A stretch of 64,000 nucleotides of DNA from Elsinoe ampelina (lineage: Eukaryota). Position numbers and translations under genes: made by a program. Below the pieces are notes generated by a model. The model saw only the letters and a list, made by a program, of their open reading frames with translations. It was not told the origin of the DNA and made no database searches. Below are positions 12,431 through 62,540 of this stretch, one piece after another. The number at the start of each line of letters is the position of its first letter. Positions within the stretch are counted from its first letter, which is position 1. The stretch covers positions 861,001-925,000 of the forward strand of contig ML992502.1 of assembly GCA_010093995.1 (NCBI GenBank), given 5' to 3'.

Positions 12431-13474
12431 CTATCGACCGAAGAAGGAAGACCCGTCGCAAGCAAAACCAGCTGCGCCAAAGTCGACCATCTGGGAAGTG
12501 GAGTTGGAAAGGCCGTGGTCGATTGAGGTCGTGGAAGTGTCAAAGTCGAAGAACGAATCAAAGTCGCCAGTAGTTTGTTCATTTGAGTTGGCGATTGGGT
12601 CCAAAAGGCCAAAAGTATTGTCTTGTAGGTTGTCATGACGCTCAAATGGGTTAAATAGAGGATAGTCCGAGTCCATACCCATGTTTGGGACGTTGACTGA
12701 ACCAAGAGACTGCTGGCCGCTGCGCTCAACCGACACTGCAGGTCGCACAACATTGCTGCAGAATGTTGTGTCGGGTTGAGCGCTGCGAAGAGAGACTCAT
12801 GGGTCAGGGACTCGTGACCGTTGTCTGATGGCATATTGTCTTCCATCTTGATGTAGGGGGTGTTTTCCGGTGATGTGGCTGGTGTACTGCACGAGAGGGA
12901 TGCTCGTGGATCGATGGTTGATGATGGTGAATGAGCTGATGAAGATGAGCCGGTACTAGAGACGAATTAGTGTCTGTGCCCGACAGCAGCGACGCGATGA
13001 AATGTACCTTTGGTTTGAATACCGGCGCTCAAAGAGTTCCTGATCTTCCTCGCTGATCGCCGGTAACGAACCACCAAGCTGCTCTTTACACTTTTCGAGC
13101 TGAGCGGACTGGATGTTGATCATGTGCTGCATCTCCTTCATCTTGGCCAAGAGCTTCTCGTTGGCCACGGCGAGTCCTTCAGCCTCTTGTCGCTTCCGCT
13201 CCCTGGAATTGTGGGCTGCTGCGCGATTGCGCTTGATTCTCTCGATACGACGCTGCTCCTTTTCATCTTCGGTCTTTGCCCTTTTCCGTGGTGGGAGATT
13301 TGTCTTTGGTTCCGGAAGTTCTTGACCCCACGATTTCCGCTTCTTGACTGGCTTTGTGACGCTAAGCGTATGTGTTGGTGGACAGAATAGATTATCCATG
13401 GCGAACATAGGATCCGGCGAAACTGATGAATGTGTCGAATAAGTCATGAGTGATTGTGGTGAAATGTGCTCCAT
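12431..13474 (-). CDS. HAC1: bZIP UPR transcription factor HacA, Ire1-spliced form; the unspliced form reads on to 12184
   Basis: KKRKSWGQELPEPKTNLPPRKRAKTEDEKEQRRIERIKRNRAAAHNSRERKR. Spliceosomal intron 13007-12956. Unspliced frame reads TQHSAAMLCDLQC. Confidence 0.95.
12739..12758 (-). other. HAC1: 20-nt unconventional (Ire1-cleaved) intron of HAC1
   Basis: CTG^CAGCAATGTTGTGCGACCTG^CAGTG. Both sites lie in 7-nt CNG'CAGN loops closed by stems CACAACATT/AATGTTGTG and CGAC/GTCG. Confidence 0.95.
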
Positions 13475-24363: not shown

Positions 24364-25548
24364 CGTCTTCGAACGGTACGAGCACTGAACTTACTATTGC
24401 AAACAAACCTGCTCGTACCCCAGGACCAATTCTCACACGAGTGCTAGGAGCTGCGCTGCTGACGGACCCGCTTAGCAGGTCGCAAAAGATGAGAACCAAA
24501 GTGGGTACAGCGTAGAAGGGTCAGAATTGCTTGCCTAAACTTCTGCTTCTGGAAGGTGTTCTGTGCCGTCTATAGGCTCCGCCACGACGACGTAAAAACT
24601 TGGGCAGCGTGAGTTCCATTCGAATATCATGGCTCTAATTTGCTGGAACGTAAGAGCACACTGATTTGTCTCAAAGTACATGGCGTGATCTATCCCACCG
24701 TTGCGACCTGCTGTAAGAATCACAGATCCATCATGCGGGGATCCTTGGACCCAGCAGAACGGGAACCGGGGGAGCTATTTTGTCATCCGAAGGAGCCGCG
24801 AGGCGGCGAGGGTTCGGCGAATGTTGAGACAGCTTGACACTTTGGAAAATGCAAGAAGAGAGGGGCGGGAACGCGTGCTCGCATCGGACAGTCACAAACG
24901 GCACGTGTGGCGGTGACGCTGCGCGTGGCTGTGCATTCCATCTTTTCCCGCCCTTCGTCGTTGACGGCTCACTGTGAGACCACATTGCGGAATAGCATAC
25001 AACGCATCTGGATGATACTGTTGAAGGGTGATGATGGTGAAGGATCGGATGATGCTTGCAAAGATGCTTGGAAGTGAGGAATCCTTATCGAATGCTTCCA
25101 TGAACGACAAGAATCATGGCGAACACACGTCTTCCTAATCGGGATTGGCGCCTGCAGCACTTCCCGTGTGAGAATGCTTGGAAACGCAAGGATATATCCT
25201 GGTGAAATGACAATTGATTCTGTTCTTTCGCACAAGTCAAAGGGAGAGACTTCTCTTTCATTCAACAACACATCCCACAATTCACATCTACCAATTTCAC
25301 CATCAAAATACAAGTCCAATTCCACAGAAAGATCAGATAAACCTGCCAACACTCGCCACGGCCGGTTAAGACGTCCGGTGTGGCTTGGCAGCGTACGACG
25401 ATTACGCTTATCCAATCGGCCTTTAGTCCCGCCTCGACGCGACCCGCTCTCTGGCATCTGCCAACATCAACCTCAAGATCCCTCGCTCTCATTCACTTTC
25501 TTCTTCCAACAACTCTTTCACACATCCGTTGTGATACCCCTTACGCCG

Positions 25549-33243: not shown

Positions 33244-35356
33244 ATGGCAAATTCCTCCAATCCCTCTACCATCGACTTGAAGCAAATCCATACTGCTTTG
33301 CAACAAGAAGTCTCCGGCTCTGGCGGAGAGGCCTACCATGGGGCCATCGATCGACTTCTTGAGTACACTCGAATCGACAAGGCGGCAAGGCAAGCGAATG
33401 CGGATGATGAACCAGTAATTATTCGAGATCTACTGGATCTGCTGTTGAGGATAGCTCCTACCGGTGTTGCATCGCCAGAGAGTGAGACCAAGCTGCTGAA
33501 ATGCTGCGGCAACCTAGTCGCCGACAATGGTAAGTGAGTGAATCATGCGATCGGGCTTTCGCTGATCTCGGAAGATCGAAATCGTGAAGCATTCATCGGT
33601 GCAGGAGAGTCCTTGCAATTCTTGAGAGATGCGATTATTTTCGAAACCATTGGTGATCAGGAGCAGCAATATCAACGAGCTGCACTGGCCCTCAAGGTCG
33701 CATTCAACCTTTGCAATGATTATGGTAGGTTTTGTTCTTCTGGTCGTCTTCGACAGAGTGCTCACACTGTCAGAATCGGGCCAACGAGCAGCCCTAGCAG
33801 CAGACCTCGACCGTTCAGTGCTCCAGCACATTCACACATGTCTATTCATATCAAAAGACGACACTACAGACCTTGGGACGGAACTGTTGGCCGACTTGTC
33901 ACAACATCTCAAGGACACGAAAACTGTAAAAGCATACGAAAAGGACTTTGTCAACCAAGTCCTTCGACTGCCCTGTGTGGAGGATGTGGATCAAGACACA
34001 TTCCTTGAGATGGCGACAGCGATTGGACCTTACCTTGCATTACCTCGCTTTCAAGAGGCCGTACTGGCATTCTCGCAAATTCATCTCGCATTCGAGCTTC
34101 TTGAGAAGACCATTTTCATGCTGTCCAATTCTCCGAAGGCAGACGAAGGTGGGTCAGCATCGTTTCTACATGTCGCAAACTTCTGATTGTAGTGAGCAGG
34201 CCGTACATTCGAGGCGGTCTTATTGAGAAGTATCACTGATATCTCCACGCTGCCGGACTTTCCGCTCACATTCGCTACCTCTTCTGATTTTGTCCGCACA
34301 TTGACCGACCGCTGCGTGTTGACTGAGAACGACGCCGATAGCGCCAATCTCGCTGTCTGCTCGTGCATATTGCTGGGAAATTACGCCACAGATCCGGCAG
34401 CTGCAGCGGCTATCGTGTCCCAAATCAAGATGGATGGTCTGCACGACTTCATAACTCTCAAAGCATATCGGAGAAGCCGTACCTCAACGGTGACAGGCAT
34501 TCAAGACCATGCGGACTACCTCCACGCCGCTGCTGGTATGCTGCGGCATCTTGCTCTTCCACCGGGGATACGACAGAAATACTTCCGGGATCAGGCCAGC
34601 AAGCAGACTGCCATGGCTCTGGCTCAATATCCCCATGTGGAGGTGCAGATCGCAGGCTTGCGACTGCTCCGACAGCTTATCGTGGACGACTTTGCTGGGC
34701 TTGATCATATCATCCACAGCTCGTATCACACTGCTTTGTTGCGATTGTACTCTGAGCCTACTACAGACGGGCGTGTGAAGCTCGAAATATCGAGGACAAT
34801 CACAGCCTTGCTTCGAGAGGCAGCCAAGCCGCTGGGGATGTCGACGGCAGCGTCTTACGGATCGGATAATACTGACACACCTCAATCTCCTATCGCGGAT
34901 GCCACGATACCTACTATGCTCGCTGCTCCGAATCTTCTCGAACCTCTCGCATATGCCATCACGGACTCGAAATTGCCTCTGGCGCAAGCAGAAGGATATC
35001 TGGGTTTGTGCCTGATCCTTCGATGCTCCTCGACAAAAGGACCACAACTTGTCTCGTCCTTGATCGCTTCTCATCCTTCGCTGCTATTCACCATGAAATC
35101 GACGATCGTAGGATCCAAAGATACTACCAATGTTGGGGAGGAAAGTGCCCCACAGGGAGAACAAACCACTGAAGGAGAAGTCTTACCACTGCAAGGACAA
35201 AAAACTGATGCGGCAGCGACTGGTGTGGCATTGAAAGCCAGGGACAATGCGGTGGTATTATTAAGCGAGCTGTTGAAAAGTGAAAACATTGATGACGCTG
35301 TGAGAGACAGCTTGGACAGCATAGCAAATGAGGCCGGCATTACCTTGAGATTATGA
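33244..35356 (+). CDS. Armadillo-repeat protein, Bem4/SmgGDS (RAP1GDS1)-like
   Basis: CCGNLVADNDRNR, AFNLCNDY, CILLGNYA, AAGMLRHLALP. Introns 33530-33574 (AAG acceptor), about 33725-33773 and about 34149-34200. Confidence 0.75.
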
Positions 35357-56303: not shown

Positions 56304-57645
56304 CTACCGACCAGGCAAATCCACCTGTCTCTGGATCATCGCCTCCCTACCAGGCCCAGTCCCGATCCACTTGACCGGCACCCCAGTATACTCCTCCACA
56401 AACTCGACATACTTGCGCGCATTCTCGGGGAGATTCGAGTAGCTGTTCACGCCCGTCGTGGTCGACTTCCACCCGGGAAAGGACCTGTAAACCACCTCGA
56501 CCTTCTTCAACGCCGCGATCGTGGCGGGAAAGACGGACGTCTCCTGCCCGTCAACCTTGTACGCCACACCGACTTTGATCTCGTCAAAGTCATCCAGGAT
56601 ATCCAGTTTCGTGAGGTTCCAGCACGTGTAGTGATTGATCAACGCCGAGTACCGCAACAAGACCAAATCCAACCATCCACACCTCCTCTTCCTCCCCGTC
56701 GTGACGCCAACCTCCTTGCCAATCGACTGGAGTTTCTCCCCCGTCGCGTCCTCCAGCTCCGTGGGGAACGGACCCCCTCCGACCCGAGTCTGATAAGCCT
56801 TGACCACGCCAATCACCTCTTTGAGCTTGAACGGACTGATGCCCAGTCCCGTGAACACCCCTCCGATACCAGTGTTACTGCTCGTCACCATAGGGTACGT
56901 CCCCCAATCGATATCCAACATCAACGCATTGGCCCCCTCGACGAGAATGCCCCTCCCGCTCTCCTCCGCGCTCGCGATCAGCGGGACCTGATCCACCACA
57001 AACTCGGCCAATTTGGGTCTCCACTCGTCGAATCGCGCAATCTCCTTCTCGACGTCGTACTGCAGCAAGTCGCCGTAGCGCTTCTTGTACGCCCCCGCCA
57101 TGGCGCGCAGTCGTGCGTCCATCCCGGCTTTGTCGAATACCTCACCGACCCTGACCCCGCTCCGTCCATGCTTGGTCTGGTAGCTTGGCCCGATGCCTTT
57201 CCTTGTGGTCCCGACTTTCGCATCCCCGAGCTCCACCTCCTCTAGTCCATCAACCAGCTGGTGCAGCTCGAACAACACCTGCGCGCGGTCGGAGATGAAG
57301 ATGCGCTCTTTCGTGTCCAGGCCATGTTTGTTCAATTGCTCGAGCTCGTAGAAGAACTGCGGGAGGGAGACGACGCAGGCGGACCCGATGAGGTTGATGC
57401 TGGTGGGGTTGATGAGGCCTGAGGGCAGGATGTGGAAGTCGTAGGTGGTCTTGTTGACGACGATGGTGTGGCCTGCGTTGTGGCCGCCGGCGGAGCGGCA
57501 GATGAGGGGGAAGCGGTGGGAGAGGATGTCGACGAGTTTGCCTTTGCCTACGGGAGAAGAGGGGTTAGTAAGAAGGAGGGGAGAGGGGAGAGGTGTTGGG
57601 GGTACCTTCGTCGCCGAACTGCGAACCGAGGACGACGGTCGTCAT
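56304..57645 (-). CDS. ADE12: Adenylosuccinate synthetase
   Basis: [11 protein letters not shown] across intron 57605-57548. [31 protein letters not shown]. Confidence 0.97.
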
Positions 57646-58305
57646 GGTGGGGGTTTAGGAGGGGTGACTTGTTGGCAGAAGGTTCAATTGGTGTTTGTGA
57701 CCATCAATTGATGGCTAGGTCAAGGAGAGAGTGTGGTAGGAATCGTTTGCGACGCGCCAAAAGCGACGTAGGAACCAACACACGAAAGCACGAGGTTGAA
57801 AATTTATCGAGGTTGTGACTGGTTCGCGGCGGGGAAATTCAAAGTCTTGTGAGGGGAATGCGGAAACGTTTGCTTCTGAGAGAGATTCTCGGGTAAAATA
57901 GATACATCGAGGATAAGAGGCAAGGAAATAGAATACGCGGTACTACTATCATATGAAGCGTTCTAGTCAGTACTAGTGCATAGCCCTCACTTCCTCTGTA
58001 AAGTAAACTAAAGAAGATTACGCTATTTGGGAAATCTGCTGCGATTTATTATAGAATTGCTCTTCTACTACCTACTACAAAGGTTTCTGCTATCTAAATG
58101 TACATTGTAACTTACATGAACCGTTACAGTCAGAGATGCAATGTATATCAAGACATAGTTGTATGATGATTGCTATAGAAGACTGTCCTGAGGTTGGATA
58201 GCCCCACGTCACATCAGTCCTGCATTTGCCGGGCCTCCACTCAAGTCGTCTTGTAACGTTCCAGGGTAACAATATGTAAGTTATCGCCTTCCTCAATTAA
58301 GAGTT

Positions 58306-58522
58306 ACCGCCGTGGCACGTAAGTGAATCGTTGTGAAGTTTCTCCTCGATTTAAGGTTGACTCTTTTGTAGAATTGGCTAGCGCGTGAGACTTTTATGAA
58401 CCAACCAAATGTCTTTAAAACACTTGTATTGGAAGGAAATCTCAAGGGTATGATTATCCTCTTCTTCTCCTTCACATAACTGATTGTTTAAAAAGATGAG
58501 GGTTCGAGCCCCTCCGGTGGTG
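58306..58522 (+). tRNA. tRNA-Lys(UUU) in four exons (58306-58318, 58372-58396, 58439-58447, 58496-58522)
   Basis: The joined exons give a 74-nt cloverleaf: acceptor ACCGCCG/CGGTGGT, D stem GCAC/GCGC with loop AATTGGCTA, anticodon stem TGAGA/TCTCA with loop CT-TTT-AA, variable AGGAT, T stem GAGGG/CCCTC with loop TTCGAGC. Confidence 0.85.
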
Positions 58523-58533
58523 TTATCGATTTC

Positions 58534-58544
58534 TTTTGTTTTTT
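58534..58544 (+). terminator. Pol III oligo-T terminator
   Basis: TTTTGTTTTTT begins 12 nt downstream of the tRNA discriminator base. Confidence 0.7.
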
Positions 58545-59919
58545 GGTGAAATGATTCAAGTTTTGACGTCCTCGTTACCTCCAGGCGATAGATTCGTTAA
58601 GGAGTCTTCAACGCATCGAAGATCTTGATCTGAATATCCTGGATGGAGCACTTGCGGTCTCTGAGCTCCCCCCTACTGCCTTGAAGCAATCGCTTTTTAA
58701 ACGAGTGCTGCTGAATTACACGGTCGGATACTGGTCTCTGCCGAATCTAGCGCCTTAACTTCGAACTCAAGCTTGTTGATTGTCGTCTCCATGGAAGGTT
58801 AATAGCAGCATGTCGATTGAGATTCGACAGATTCCGAAATCACCAATTCTCAGAACAACTTCTGTGCGTGTAATGAAGATCTGCAGTCATCCATCGAGAC
58901 TTTGAGCACCCTCAGCTCAGTGGGACGGCAAGGACATCTTCAGCGGCCTTGGCGGTAATTGGCGAGGTATGATTGCTACACCATCACGTGGTACAACCAT
59001 CTTCCTGCCTTCTTGATTGGGTTCGAAGCAGTCTCTATTCAAGCCTTTCCTGTGCCTTAGTACGACCGAATATCAGATCGGGATAGAGCGTTCGGCGAGC
59101 GTTTCCAGCCTTGTCGTCACTCGGGGGATCCACGACAGTCTATGGAATCGCAACGTCGTCTGGCTCGCCATTCGGAGTGTCCTCTCACCTCTTCAATGCC
59201 AATCGTAGCCGAAGATGGACTTTCCAGAACCACCCATTTCCCCGAGAAGTGCGGTGGTTGAATTTTCGCCATCAAAGAACGTGCCGAAGTTGAACTCCCT
59301 ACTTCCAAGACGCAAGACGAGGCGGGTAACTCATCGCGGTGGTACTGGCGGCGTACCAAGACGAAGATTATGAGCATCTTCTGCTCAGCTTTGGAGCACT
59401 GCCGGACCGTCACCTCTACAAAATCCCTCGCAGCTTCTAGAGCCTGAAATACGTCAGTAAGCCGACTCAGATTGCAAGAGATACATTTTGCTGACCTGGA
59501 CCAAGCCTTTCGCGAAATTCATGATCTTCCCCAAATCCTCTCTCTGCAGAGTGATCTAGTGCCAGTCTCTGTACACAGACTCGATCCAATGTGTGAACGT
59601 GTAACCTGCACTCCTGACTTACACAAAGACTGGAGCCTGGAAAGCATGAGTGCCGGCTTCTGACGACTCTACTCGAGCTGGAAGGACCAATTGGTCTGCC
59701 AGGTCGACCCGGTTCCAACAAGTCAGTGAGCTCCAAATGTCACGTCCTATGAGAGAATAATGCTGTACATTGTGACGATTCGCCATCTGCGCCTATTCTA
59801 CCCGGTTTCCCAAATCCCATGTTCGCTGTTGGAAATGCATGCTCCAATGTGTGCACTAGCAAATGAGCTACTAGATCTCTGCGATTACTAGATAAATCGT
59901 CCATCACGTCAGGTCTTGC

Positions 59920-62540
59920 TCATTGAGCTACGCTCTTTCCACCGTCCTGCGTTGGGAGAACGTGGACATCTTTGATCGCCTTGTCGTCTTCCTTGATTGC
60001 ACCGTTATGGTTACTGGGCTCGAGGTCGTCGAATACTGGCCCACTGCTGGAGCTCCCTCCACTGTCGCCCCTCTCGCGAGTTTCGACGTTACCATGGACT
60101 TTTGCATCGTCGGGCTTGAGGTGTGTATCGTTCGTGGAAGGCGTCGTTGTTGAGACCGCATTCTCATTGTGCTCGGCTTGGTGCTCAGCCTTCTCTTCCT
60201 CGCCGATCATAGCTGCGAGACTGCGAAAGTTGAACATCGATTCGGTAGCCGTACCTCCAGATGTAGGCGGTGTTCCCGACTTTGCATCGCTGGTCCCTGG
60301 CATGTCCAATCCGCTAGCGGCTGGGGAAACGCCTAGTGCCGACTCATTTCTGTAGCTACCAGGAGCTGAGTCGAGGACTGAAGAAGCCACAGAAGACGCT
60401 CCGGAGAACTGACGATGATGACCTCTCAATCCACCTTCCTTGGGCACCGGCAATGATATGGGTTGGGAGGGCTGGGACAGGTTCGCGCGGCTTTCTTCTA
60501 GATGTCGCTGGGCGCTTTCCGCTGTCCTCACGTCGGTCTTGCTACTCTCCCTATTGAGCGTTGATGTAGGCTCATCGAGTGGGTTAAAACCCATGATCCC
60601 GGTCGCAGGTGCTTTGCCCTTGCCTGGAGGAAGCGGACTTGCTGTTCCAGAAGTATATCCAAGATTACTTGTCGATCGTGTCATAGACGCTGTCGCCCAA
60701 GTCGATGTGCTCTGGTTGGCACTTGTAGCGTACAGACTTCCTGCCTTTTCTGCCTTCTTCGCTGCCTTATCAGCCTTTTTCTGTGCTTTGGCTTCTTCTT
60801 TTGCACGCTTTTTGGCATCTTTGGCTGCCTCCTTTTCTTCCTTGCGCTTACGTTCTTCTTCCGCCGCTAGTGACAATCGGATGGCCTCCATCATCATGAG
60901 ATCTTCCAGGTCGTCAACTCTGTTCCGACGACCAAGAGGTCTCTGTGGTCCTTCGCTGTCACTCTGATTTGCGCCTCCATCGGGCCTGCCCAGGAATGCG
61001 CTTAGACTGACCCCCTCAGGAATGCCAGGTTGAGGGCCGCCCGACGAGCCTTCGCCAAAGAGTCTGCGCCTGCGACCGAATGCTCTCAAATCGATATTCT
61101 GAGTGTTGCCCAACACGTATGCAGCATTATGTAAAGCTGTGGCCGCTGCAGATCTTCGCAAGGCATGTGCACGAGCGTCTGCTAGCTTTTTGGCCCAATC
61201 TGGTCGTACCCTGTCTGTTGTAACCACTGTCTTATCGGTGGCTGATAGAGAAGTTGTTCTTCGTCTTGAACCCATTGATCCGAGCGACGTGGAGGACGAC
61301 ATGGCTGAAGCGGCGGATGCCAACGGATGCGATCCACCAGCATAAGCCAGTCCTCGCCTGAAAGGAGGAGGTTCGTACGTGACGCCAAATTCAGGAGTGG
61401 CGCAATAAGGACAAGCCGAAGGTTCCGACACCAGCAGTCCTTCCTCTTCCGGCTTTGGTTCTGGATTTGGGTTGCTGGGATCTTCATGATGCTCGGGTGG
61501 ATGTGGATCTGGTCGCTTGATCTGAACAAAGCACTCGGAACAGATTGGCTGATCGCAACATCGTGTTCTGTTCAAGTATGGCGGATAGTAGAGAAAGCAG
61601 ATAGGACATTCCTGAGCGTCCTTGTACAGATATGCTTCCAGCGGCTGACCATTGACATTTGGATCTCGTGGTAATTGAATTTCCTGTGGTGTCATTTGGA
61701 CATTCGAGTTTGAGCGAGAAGCTGACGTGAGAGATGCGAGAGTCTTTGCTCTTCCCCGAAACAGATTCATTCCACCAGAAGGAGGCGATGTGGGTGATGC
61801 AGGACTGGACGTGGAAAAGGCTGGATGTGATGCAGAAAGGTTGGTAGAAATGTCAGACTGGTTAGAGATGGATCTGGAGGTGATTGGTATGGTCAATTTG
61901 TTGACTTCGGCTTCGGTAGGTCCGGTCTCTGCATTTGTCGTCTCTGAAGGTGTACGTTGTAGCTCTGGGGGTATTTCATCTGCGGCGGGGATTGGGAGGC
62001 CTCTCGCCGCAGCGATGAGCTGATATTCTGTCCATGAGTCTTTGTGATCGTTTAATCCTCTCCAGAAAGGAGCCAGTCGTCGTTCAACCTATACTTTATG
62101 AGACACAATCCTGCCTGATAAATGAGCCTACTCACTTGGAGTTGTCTGACTATCGCTTTACTGAAATCTTCCGTGCCAGTATATGTACCCAACGTCACGA
62201 GATATCCGCCATCGACATGCTCCTCCTTCAGACTCCGCTCCCTGTCCTTTTCCCTAGCTATGCGCTCTTTCTCCAACCTCCTAGCTTCCCTCTCTTGTTT
62301 TGTCTCTCGAGGCCGATCTTCCCTGGTGATGTCCCGCTCACTCAGACCCAGCGAGTTGAGAAAGTGAAGGTCGGGCCTACTGTTACTCCTGCCGACTCTT
62401 GACGGTGTACTGCCAGAGGTATATCGAAATACGGCCGAAGGTGTTATTGTATCGATTGGCTCTGACGTGCTCACATTTCGAAGGCTACCCGGCCTGGACC
62501 GCTGCTGGCCTCTTGACTCTTTGGTGGAGCTGTTGCCCAT
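59920..62540 (-). CDS. SIP5: Snf1-interacting protein Sip5 (RING-like)
   Basis: MGNSSTK myristoylation-type start, [53 protein letters not shown]. Intron 62135-62089. Confidence 0.93.

Follow-up and report, generated by a model that had tools for sequence, protein, structure and literature searches.

Can a single tRNA gene depend on both the spliceosome and the tRNA splicing machinery for the maturation of its product? Textbooks and recent papers regard spliceosomal introns and tRNA introns as two distinct systems, each with RNAs of its own, and a 2025 paper, in its available portion, presents the three nuclear intron types as unrelated (PMC12530127). The question is raised by a tRNA-Lys(UUU) locus at 58306–58522 on the plus strand of the 64-kb stretch of DNA analyzed here (hereafter, the window), which a preliminary description, made from the nucleotide letters, had read as a gene interrupted by a canonical tRNA intron and by two further introns of the spliceosomal type.

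Results

Anatomy of the locus and the restored cloverleaf

The locus is composed of four pieces of 13, 25, 9, and 27 nt, between which lie inserts of 53, 42, and 48 nt, and all the coordinates given for them in the preliminary description proved to be exact. Exon 1 (58306–58318, plus strand, as are all the other parts of the gene) provides tRNA positions 1–13, that is, the acceptor 5′ strand, U8, G9, and the D-stem 5′ strand GCAC. Exon 2 (58372–58396) provides positions 14–37, comprising the D loop with G18G19, the D-stem 3′ strand, the anticodon stem 5′ strand, and the sequence C32 U33 UUU A37, and is followed by exon 3 (58439–58447; positions 38–46: A38, the anticodon stem 3′ strand, and A44 G45 G46) and exon 4 (58496–58522; positions 47–73: A47 U48, the T arm, the acceptor 3′ strand, and the discriminator G). 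The position numbering and the list of conserved positions applied here are those that we take to be standard. When the exons are joined by a script according to these coordinates, the resulting 74-nt sequence is called by ARAGORN as tRNA-Lys(ttt) with all four arms, in line with the regular tRNA-Lys(UUU) that had been expected after the cutting, and the cloverleaf emerges only once all three inserts have been removed in silico. Neither the 217-nt genomic form nor the whole window elicits any tRNA call by ARAGORN, and the Rfam tRNA family gives no match at the gathering score in the window and none at E ≤ 10 in the segment 58000–58800; the gene is thus missed by standard scanners, as had been anticipated, and is recognized by ARAGORN in the spliced form.

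The spliced form contains the conserved bases U8, A14, G18G19, A21, U33, A37, T54-T55-C56, A58, and C61, together with the tertiary pairs A15–U48, G26–A44, and C13–G22 with G46, so that 73 of the 74 exon positions fit a canonical tRNA, the sole flaw being an A12·C23 mismatch in the D stem. The mismatched A12 (58317) is at the same time position −2 of the 5′ splice site of insert 1, where A is the consensus base and pairs with U1 snRNA. The mismatch could therefore represent a trade-off, in which the D stem is weakened in favor of splicing, instead of a mark of decay. The interrupted structure is not an artefact of the assembly, because it is identical in a 4,689-nt contig of run X3, derived from another sample in another study, which spans the locus and matches 58174–59300 colinearly with zero differences, all three inserts included.

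Two sets of control constructs were made by removing every intron-like candidate, singly and in neighboring pairs, and submitting the products to ARAGORN. The 433 candidates of the window gave 654 constructs and three tRNA calls, all at the tRNA-Lys locus, and the 2,803 candidates found in 80 unrelated metagenome loci (472,084 bases) gave 4,140 constructs, among which no tRNA was called. These numbers bear on the simplest alternative, namely that the resemblance has arisen by chance and that nothing at the locus derives from a tRNA, for which the failure of the scanners on the genomic DNA is the only point that can be cited. With the T arm, acceptor pairing, D loop, and anticodon arm all in order, and with tRNA calls confined to this one place, we consider such a coincidence extremely improbable.

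Inserts 1 and 3 compared with the introns of the window

The introns of the window were collected heuristically as GT–AG segments bridging long open frames and are thus candidates drawn from the sequence rather than introns verified with RNA. The short candidates are 45–59 nt long, start with GTAAGT, GTGAGT, GTATGA, or GTACG, and have the branch motif CTGAC, CTAAC, CTGAT, CTAAT, or TTGAC located 9–16 nt before the end. A further intron, in the adenylosuccinate synthetase gene (57548–57605, minus strand, 58 nt), reads GTACCC...TACTAAC...GTAG and joins ...FGDE to GKGKLVD, a junction that we take to be the conserved P-loop of the enzyme.

Insert 1 (58319–58371, 53 nt), placed between tRNA positions 13 and 14, starts with GTAAGT and ends with TAG, and its branch motif TTGAC has the predicted branch A at 58360, 11 nt from the end. 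Insert 3 (58448–58495, 48 nt), placed between positions 46 and 47 in the variable loop, starts with GTATGA and ends with AAG, with the predicted branch A of its motif CTGAT at 58483, 12 nt from the end. Both inserts thus combine an extended 5′ splice-site consensus including GT with a YTRAY branch motif shortly before the terminal AG, and their lengths of 53 and 48 nt compare well with those of the local short candidates and of the adenylosuccinate synthetase intron. The boundary of insert 1 is unique, no shift being possible, whereas that of insert 3 can be shifted by one base, with GT–AG ends appearing in only one of the two registers. The starting hexamers GTAAGT and GTATGA also open ORF-bridging candidates at 33530, 51647, and 48754 (GTATGA in the case of 48754), and TTGAC recurs in the candidate introns at 25220–25278 and 2706–2760. 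The AAG end of insert 3 has its counterpart in the intron starting at 33530 (plus strand), whose flanking frames are identical in frame with an in-frame TGA between them; the choice of acceptors is confined to 33574 and 33589, each of them AAG, and an AAG acceptor is therefore in use in this genome. The preliminary description had pointed to this intron as an example of AAG use, and the acceptor is indeed forced, at either 33574 or 33589. BLAST of the three inserts revealed no copies of them within the 64-kb window, where no match to inserts 1 and 3 exceeds 12 nt. As this search covers 64 kb, it says little about whether the inserts might be introner-like elements, mobile introns recurring in a genome as many near-identical copies.

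The rarity of such segments was estimated by a loose intron rule consisting of a GT[AG]NGN start, YTRAY at 5–30 nt from the end, and a terminal AG. Of the 255,798 segments with a length of 48 or 53 nt that the two strands of the window offer, 28 passed the rule (1.1e-4), a number that includes both inserts 1 and 3 and surely also some real introns, and insert 2 fails the same rule. The likeness of inserts 1 and 3 to the introns of the window, noted at the outset, is upheld for the 5′ splice site and the branch motif as well as for the AG end and the length, and by origin the two inserts are very probably spliceosomal introns.

Two minor features were seen in the intron starting at 33530. Its two acceptors are five codons apart, which would make alternative in-frame splicing possible, and there is a resemblance between its opening 15 nt (GTAAGTGA, then GTGAATC) and the opening 11 nt of insert 1. 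Elsewhere in the window, the Rfam model of the Hac1/Xbp1 (bZIP) non-canonical intron matches 12718–12787 on the minus strand with 58.3 bits against a gathering score of 41, and the window therefore also contains an intron of the third nuclear type, for which Ire1 does the cutting and tRNA ligase the joining.

Insert 2 and the bulge-helix-bulge test

Insert 2 (58397–58438, 42 nt) lies at the site of the canonical tRNA intron between positions 37 and 38, where the preliminary description had correctly placed it. The pairing with the anticodon loop that had been ascribed to an upstream TAAAA is, however, formed by AAGG (58433–58436), which pairs with C32–U35 (C32–G58436, U33·G, U34–A, and U35–A). 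A 3-nt bulge, AA^A, beside the anticodon stem contains the 3′ splice site, and the anticodon stem itself serves as the outer helix.

All three inserts were examined for the standard bulge-helix-bulge (BHB) geometry, in which positions −6 to −3 of the exon pair with positions −6 to −3 of the intron in a central helix of 4 bp, the splice sites lie in two flanking 3-nt bulges, and the exons pair with each other in an outer helix. Insert 2 scores 4/4 for both the central and the exon–exon helix. The corresponding values are 1/4 and 0/4 for insert 1 and 1/4 and 1/4 for insert 3, and they reach only 2/4 and 2/4 for insert 3 in its shifted register. Insert 2 alone has the features of a canonical eukaryotic tRNA intron, a substrate of SEN and Trl1, inserts 1 and 3 being located at 13/14 and 46/47, and a BHB-type intron of the archaeal or Cyanidioschyzon merolae kind is rejected for inserts 1 and 3 on account of the failed helix pairing.

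It might nevertheless be supposed that the tRNA splicing endonuclease removes all three inserts and that the GT–AG ends of two of them are incidental. A precedent exists in the tRNA genes of nucleomorphs and of C. merolae, which carry two or three non-canonical introns whose removal is ascribed to the tRNA endonuclease, according to the available part of a review (PMC4090602). In the present gene, the lack of a BHB in inserts 1 and 3 (central helix 1/4, or 2/4 when shifted; exon–exon helix 0–2/4) speaks against this supposition, and so does the occurrence on both inserts of GT–AG ends, 5′ consensus, and branch motif, the chance of which is near 1e-8; we regard removal by the endonuclease alone as very unlikely. 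The gene accordingly has one genuine tRNA-type intron and two inserts that could plausibly be removed only by the spliceosome.

Promoter elements and transcripts

A B-box-like element, GGTTCGAGCCC, is located at 58501–58511 (plus strand) and is the only full match in the 64-kb window to GGTTCGANNCC, which we take to be the B-box consensus. The A-box region (58313–58377, plus strand; positions 8–19), compared with what is presumably the A-box consensus, TRGCNNAGTGG, is split by insert 1 into TGGCAC and AATTGG. The two halves are 53 bp apart and the first half is 188 bp away from the B box, so that the use of the gene by Pol III may be poor. A pseudogene had been left possible from the beginning because of A1–U72 and the A12·C23 mismatch; this caveat stands, and the division of the A-box promoter by insert 1 adds a further point to it. 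Downstream, a run of T4 followed by T6 (58534–58544, plus strand; T6 at 58539–58544) is found 12–22 nt past the discriminator and resembles a Pol III terminator, and no T run longer than four occurs within the gene. The lack of T5 in the inserts was considered as a sign of selection by Pol III and discarded, since by a rough estimate about half of random AT-rich sequences of equal length would be alike in this respect.

Contigs of four runs (X3, X4, X5, and X6) were searched over 57700–59300, and none contains an exon–exon joint, a result to be read with the fact that such contigs cannot reveal small or rare RNAs, that none of the runs is recorded as RNA, and that those of X5 and X6 leave inserts 1 and 2 uncovered, X5 having no cover over 57750–58505. 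The X3 contig described above may be DNA or minus-strand RNA. In run X4, which comes from organism B, a low-depth contig over 58440–58656 (minus strand) has nine non-templated T residues before 58440; these are taken to be the poly(A) tail of an RNA transcribed from the minus strand, which implies that an antisense Pol II transcript terminates within the tRNA locus. The X4 contig differs from the window at one position, 58496 (A to T), corresponding to position 47 in the variable loop, a change that would be harmless for a tRNA and is too little to measure selection.

These data are relevant to the possibility that the locus is a dead copy, that is, a former tRNA-Lys(UUU) gene with two captured intron-derived inserts, neither properly transcribed nor spliced, which we hold to be quite possible, if somewhat short of probable. 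The copies of introns would have been captured at DNA breaks or inserted by reverse splicing, and the intact look of the locus would then reflect a recent event. The split A box and the A12·C23 mismatch, the absence of the junctions from every contig, and the colinear read-through in X3 argue for a dead copy and against function, as does the minus-strand poly(A) end within the locus; the antisense end and the read-through are unlike what would be expected of a strongly occupied Pol III gene, although this argument is a weak one. On the other hand, contigs of the poly(A) type could not reveal a tRNA in any case, 73 of the 74 exon positions are canonical, and the splice signals, the helix between anticodon and intron, the B box, and the terminator are all intact. 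Moreover, two separate intron-like insertions into a dead target of 74 nt would seem unlikely.

Another possibility is that the locus gives rise to a plus-strand non-coding transcript made by Pol II, from which the introns are spliced to give, in place of a decoding tRNA, a tRNA-like RNA or a by-product. Splicing by the spliceosome is, as a rule, coupled to transcription by Pol II, and two observations could be accommodated by such a transcript: the adenylosuccinate synthetase gene is divergent and starts (ATG at 57645) about 660 nt upstream of the tRNA locus, and low-depth RNA-like contigs lie over 58440–59300. The sole evidence on the strand is, however, the minus-strand poly(A) tail, and the retention of the tRNA tertiary positions and of the 37/38 intron helix would be left unexplained. 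The absence of X5 contigs over 57750–58505 also counts against it, as a gap in cover and not as a proof, and on the whole we think a Pol II product of this kind unlikely.

The low-depth contigs of X4, X5, and X6 (58440–59300, minus strand) lie over a 2.3-kb stretch without a Pfam-recognizable ORF, situated between the adenylosuccinate synthetase gene and an ORF at 59920–62088. The seven ORFs of 58093–59739 match no Pfam family, and a hidden gene therefore does not explain the region; the minus-strand transcript over 58440–59300 may represent an extended 3′ UTR or else a non-coding antisense RNA that stops in the tRNA locus. Its poly(A) end at 58440, as seen in X4, falls 1–2 nt away from the 3′ boundary of the tRNA-type intron.

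Neighborhood and relatives

An exact 24-mer of the 3′ exon had no match in the metagenome contigs searched. The genomic setting was followed through the neighboring genes by a search with the 200 residues that directly follow the intron of adenylosuccinate synthetase, from which 80 loci were kept. The best 15 of these (L001–L015) were scanned with ARAGORN and for exon matches, and seven loci were searched by tblastn with the protein of the upstream ORF. L001 shows 77% identity over the 200-residue N-terminal query of adenylosuccinate synthetase and the upstream minus-strand ORF too has a relative there, with 59% identity over 327 residues and with order and orientation preserved; because both neighbors have their relatives in L001, the gene pair is syntenic. 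L001 is the only one of the seven loci that matches the upstream-gene protein, and the relation, though syntenic, is distant.

At the syntenic place, no tRNA was called by ARAGORN in any of L001–L015, the exons went unmatched in these 15 loci whether ≤2 or ≤5 mismatches were allowed, and a B box was absent from L001 and L002, the two loci scanned for it. From the lack of a tRNA call, an exon match, and a B box in L001, the tRNA gene appears not to be an old resident of this interval. Its absence from the syntenic place in L001, the sole syntenic relative found, weighs against function and is in keeping with a dead copy.

Two side observations were made in this part of the analysis. The ORF at 59920–62088 (minus strand) encodes 722 residues with a cysteine-rich stretch, presumably Sip5-like, and its Pfam matches remain below the cut-off, with only a weak Alginate_lyase hit of 16.3 bits. 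The sole ARAGORN call among the 15 loci, a tRNA-Asn(gtt) in L005 (379–1505, minus strand) with an "intron" of 1,037 nt, almost certainly results from two unrelated halves having been joined falsely.

Discussion

The features described above lead us to propose, tentatively and with a confidence that stops a little short of an even chance, that a nuclear tRNA-Lys(UUU) gene, apparently of a filamentous ascomycete, continues to produce a tRNA by the use of both the spliceosome and the tRNA splicing machinery. The more specific claim, that maturation of this tRNA would need first the spliceosome and then the endonuclease and ligase, and that the pre-tRNA would thus constitute a new class of spliceosome substrate, is made with more reserve still, although we see in it a substantial possibility. 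In the predicted course of events, an ancestral tRNA-type intron at 37/38 would have been retained, and introns of the spliceosomal type would have been gained later at 13/14 and 46/47. Transcription would be due either to Pol III, relying on the intact B box, or to Pol II, starting in the promoter region that the locus shares with adenylosuccinate synthetase. Inserts 1 and 3 would then be taken out by the spliceosome, without which neither the D arm nor the tertiary core could form, and the restored tRNA body would be passed on to RNase P, RNase Z, and the SEN endonuclease with the Trl1 ligase, insert 2 being removed at this last stage.

What speaks for function is that the exons, the splice signals, the 37/38 helix, the B box, and the terminator have all been kept together, and that two gains within 74 nt may be easier to explain if the first of them left the gene usable. 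Against function, tRNA-Lys(UUU) genes are usually multi-copy, and one copy can therefore die unnoticed. Insertions in the D or T arm of eukaryotic tRNA genes, moreover, are usually deemed to mark pseudogenes in the available text of a review on tRNA introns, in which the word stem "spliceosom" does not occur (PMC4090602), and this convention would also place the present locus among the dead copies.

The closest precedent is provided by the fungal snRNA genes. Introns of the mRNA type in U6 were reportedly first found in Schizosaccharomyces pombe. As far as the accessible part of a review on U6 goes, spliceosomal introns are known in the fungal genes for U6 (up to four per gene), U1, U2, and U5 snRNA and for rRNA, have perhaps arisen by reverse splicing, and, in the case of the intron-bearing U6 genes, await experimental validation of expression and splicing (PMC5855946). 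The tRNA-Lys locus resembles these genes in having short GT–AG introns with normal splice and branch sites inside a small, structured non-coding RNA gene, and in the possibility of several introns per gene; U6 is, in addition, transcribed by Pol III, so that the same source offers a precedent for function in a Pol III-made fungal RNA with spliced introns of the mRNA type (PMC5855946). It differs from them in that the host, a tRNA, is no component of the spliceosome, that a second and unrelated intron type is present in the same gene, and that the splicing is a prediction.

A likeness of another kind is seen with the tRNA genes of cryptophyte and chlorarachniophyte nucleomorphs and of C. merolae, which, in the portion of the review at hand, have two or three interruptions, one of them canonical and the others in the D arm, the T arm, or elsewhere, and which are also missed by standard scanners (PMC4090602). 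The inserts in those genes, however, measure 3–24 nt or have a BHB, whereas those at 13/14 and 46/47 in the present gene are 48–53 nt long, have GT–AG ends and branch motifs, and fail the BHB test. The archaeal tRNAs of Thermoproteales, according to the parts of two sources available, likewise have up to three introns at positions such as 45/46, and one intron must sometimes leave before the next is recognized (10.1101/614032, PMC4090602), an order of events comparable with that proposed here. They belong to another domain of life, all their introns are removed by one mechanism, and they have no GT–AG or branch signals. Finally, the canonical fungal intron at 37/38, processed by SEN and Trl1, is matched in position, anticodon pairing, and 3-nt bulge by insert 2, and by insert 2 only.

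Within the full-text literature, from which most subscription papers are outside the scope, we met with no tRNA reported to carry a spliceosomal intron and, in agreement with the preliminary description, with none reported to need the spliceosome; the combination of spliceosomal and tRNA-type introns in one tRNA gene appears not to have been described. If the proposal of a spliceosome-dependent tRNA is true, the spliceosome can serve tRNA production, and the locus would offer a dated, small, and easily assayed case of introns being gained by a structured Pol III gene, bearing on the models of reverse splicing and break capture. Working fungal tRNA genes could then also be hidden from tRNAscan-SE, ARAGORN, and Rfam, because these tools model a single 37/38 intron in eukaryotes, and the tRNA gene counts of fungi may be systematically too low. 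For tRNAscan-SE 2.0, the limitation of eukaryotic tRNA genes to one intron is given in the available part of its description (bioRxiv 10.1101/614032). Even if the gene is dead, two complete intron-like inserts within 74 nt would make the locus an unusual record of intron spread.
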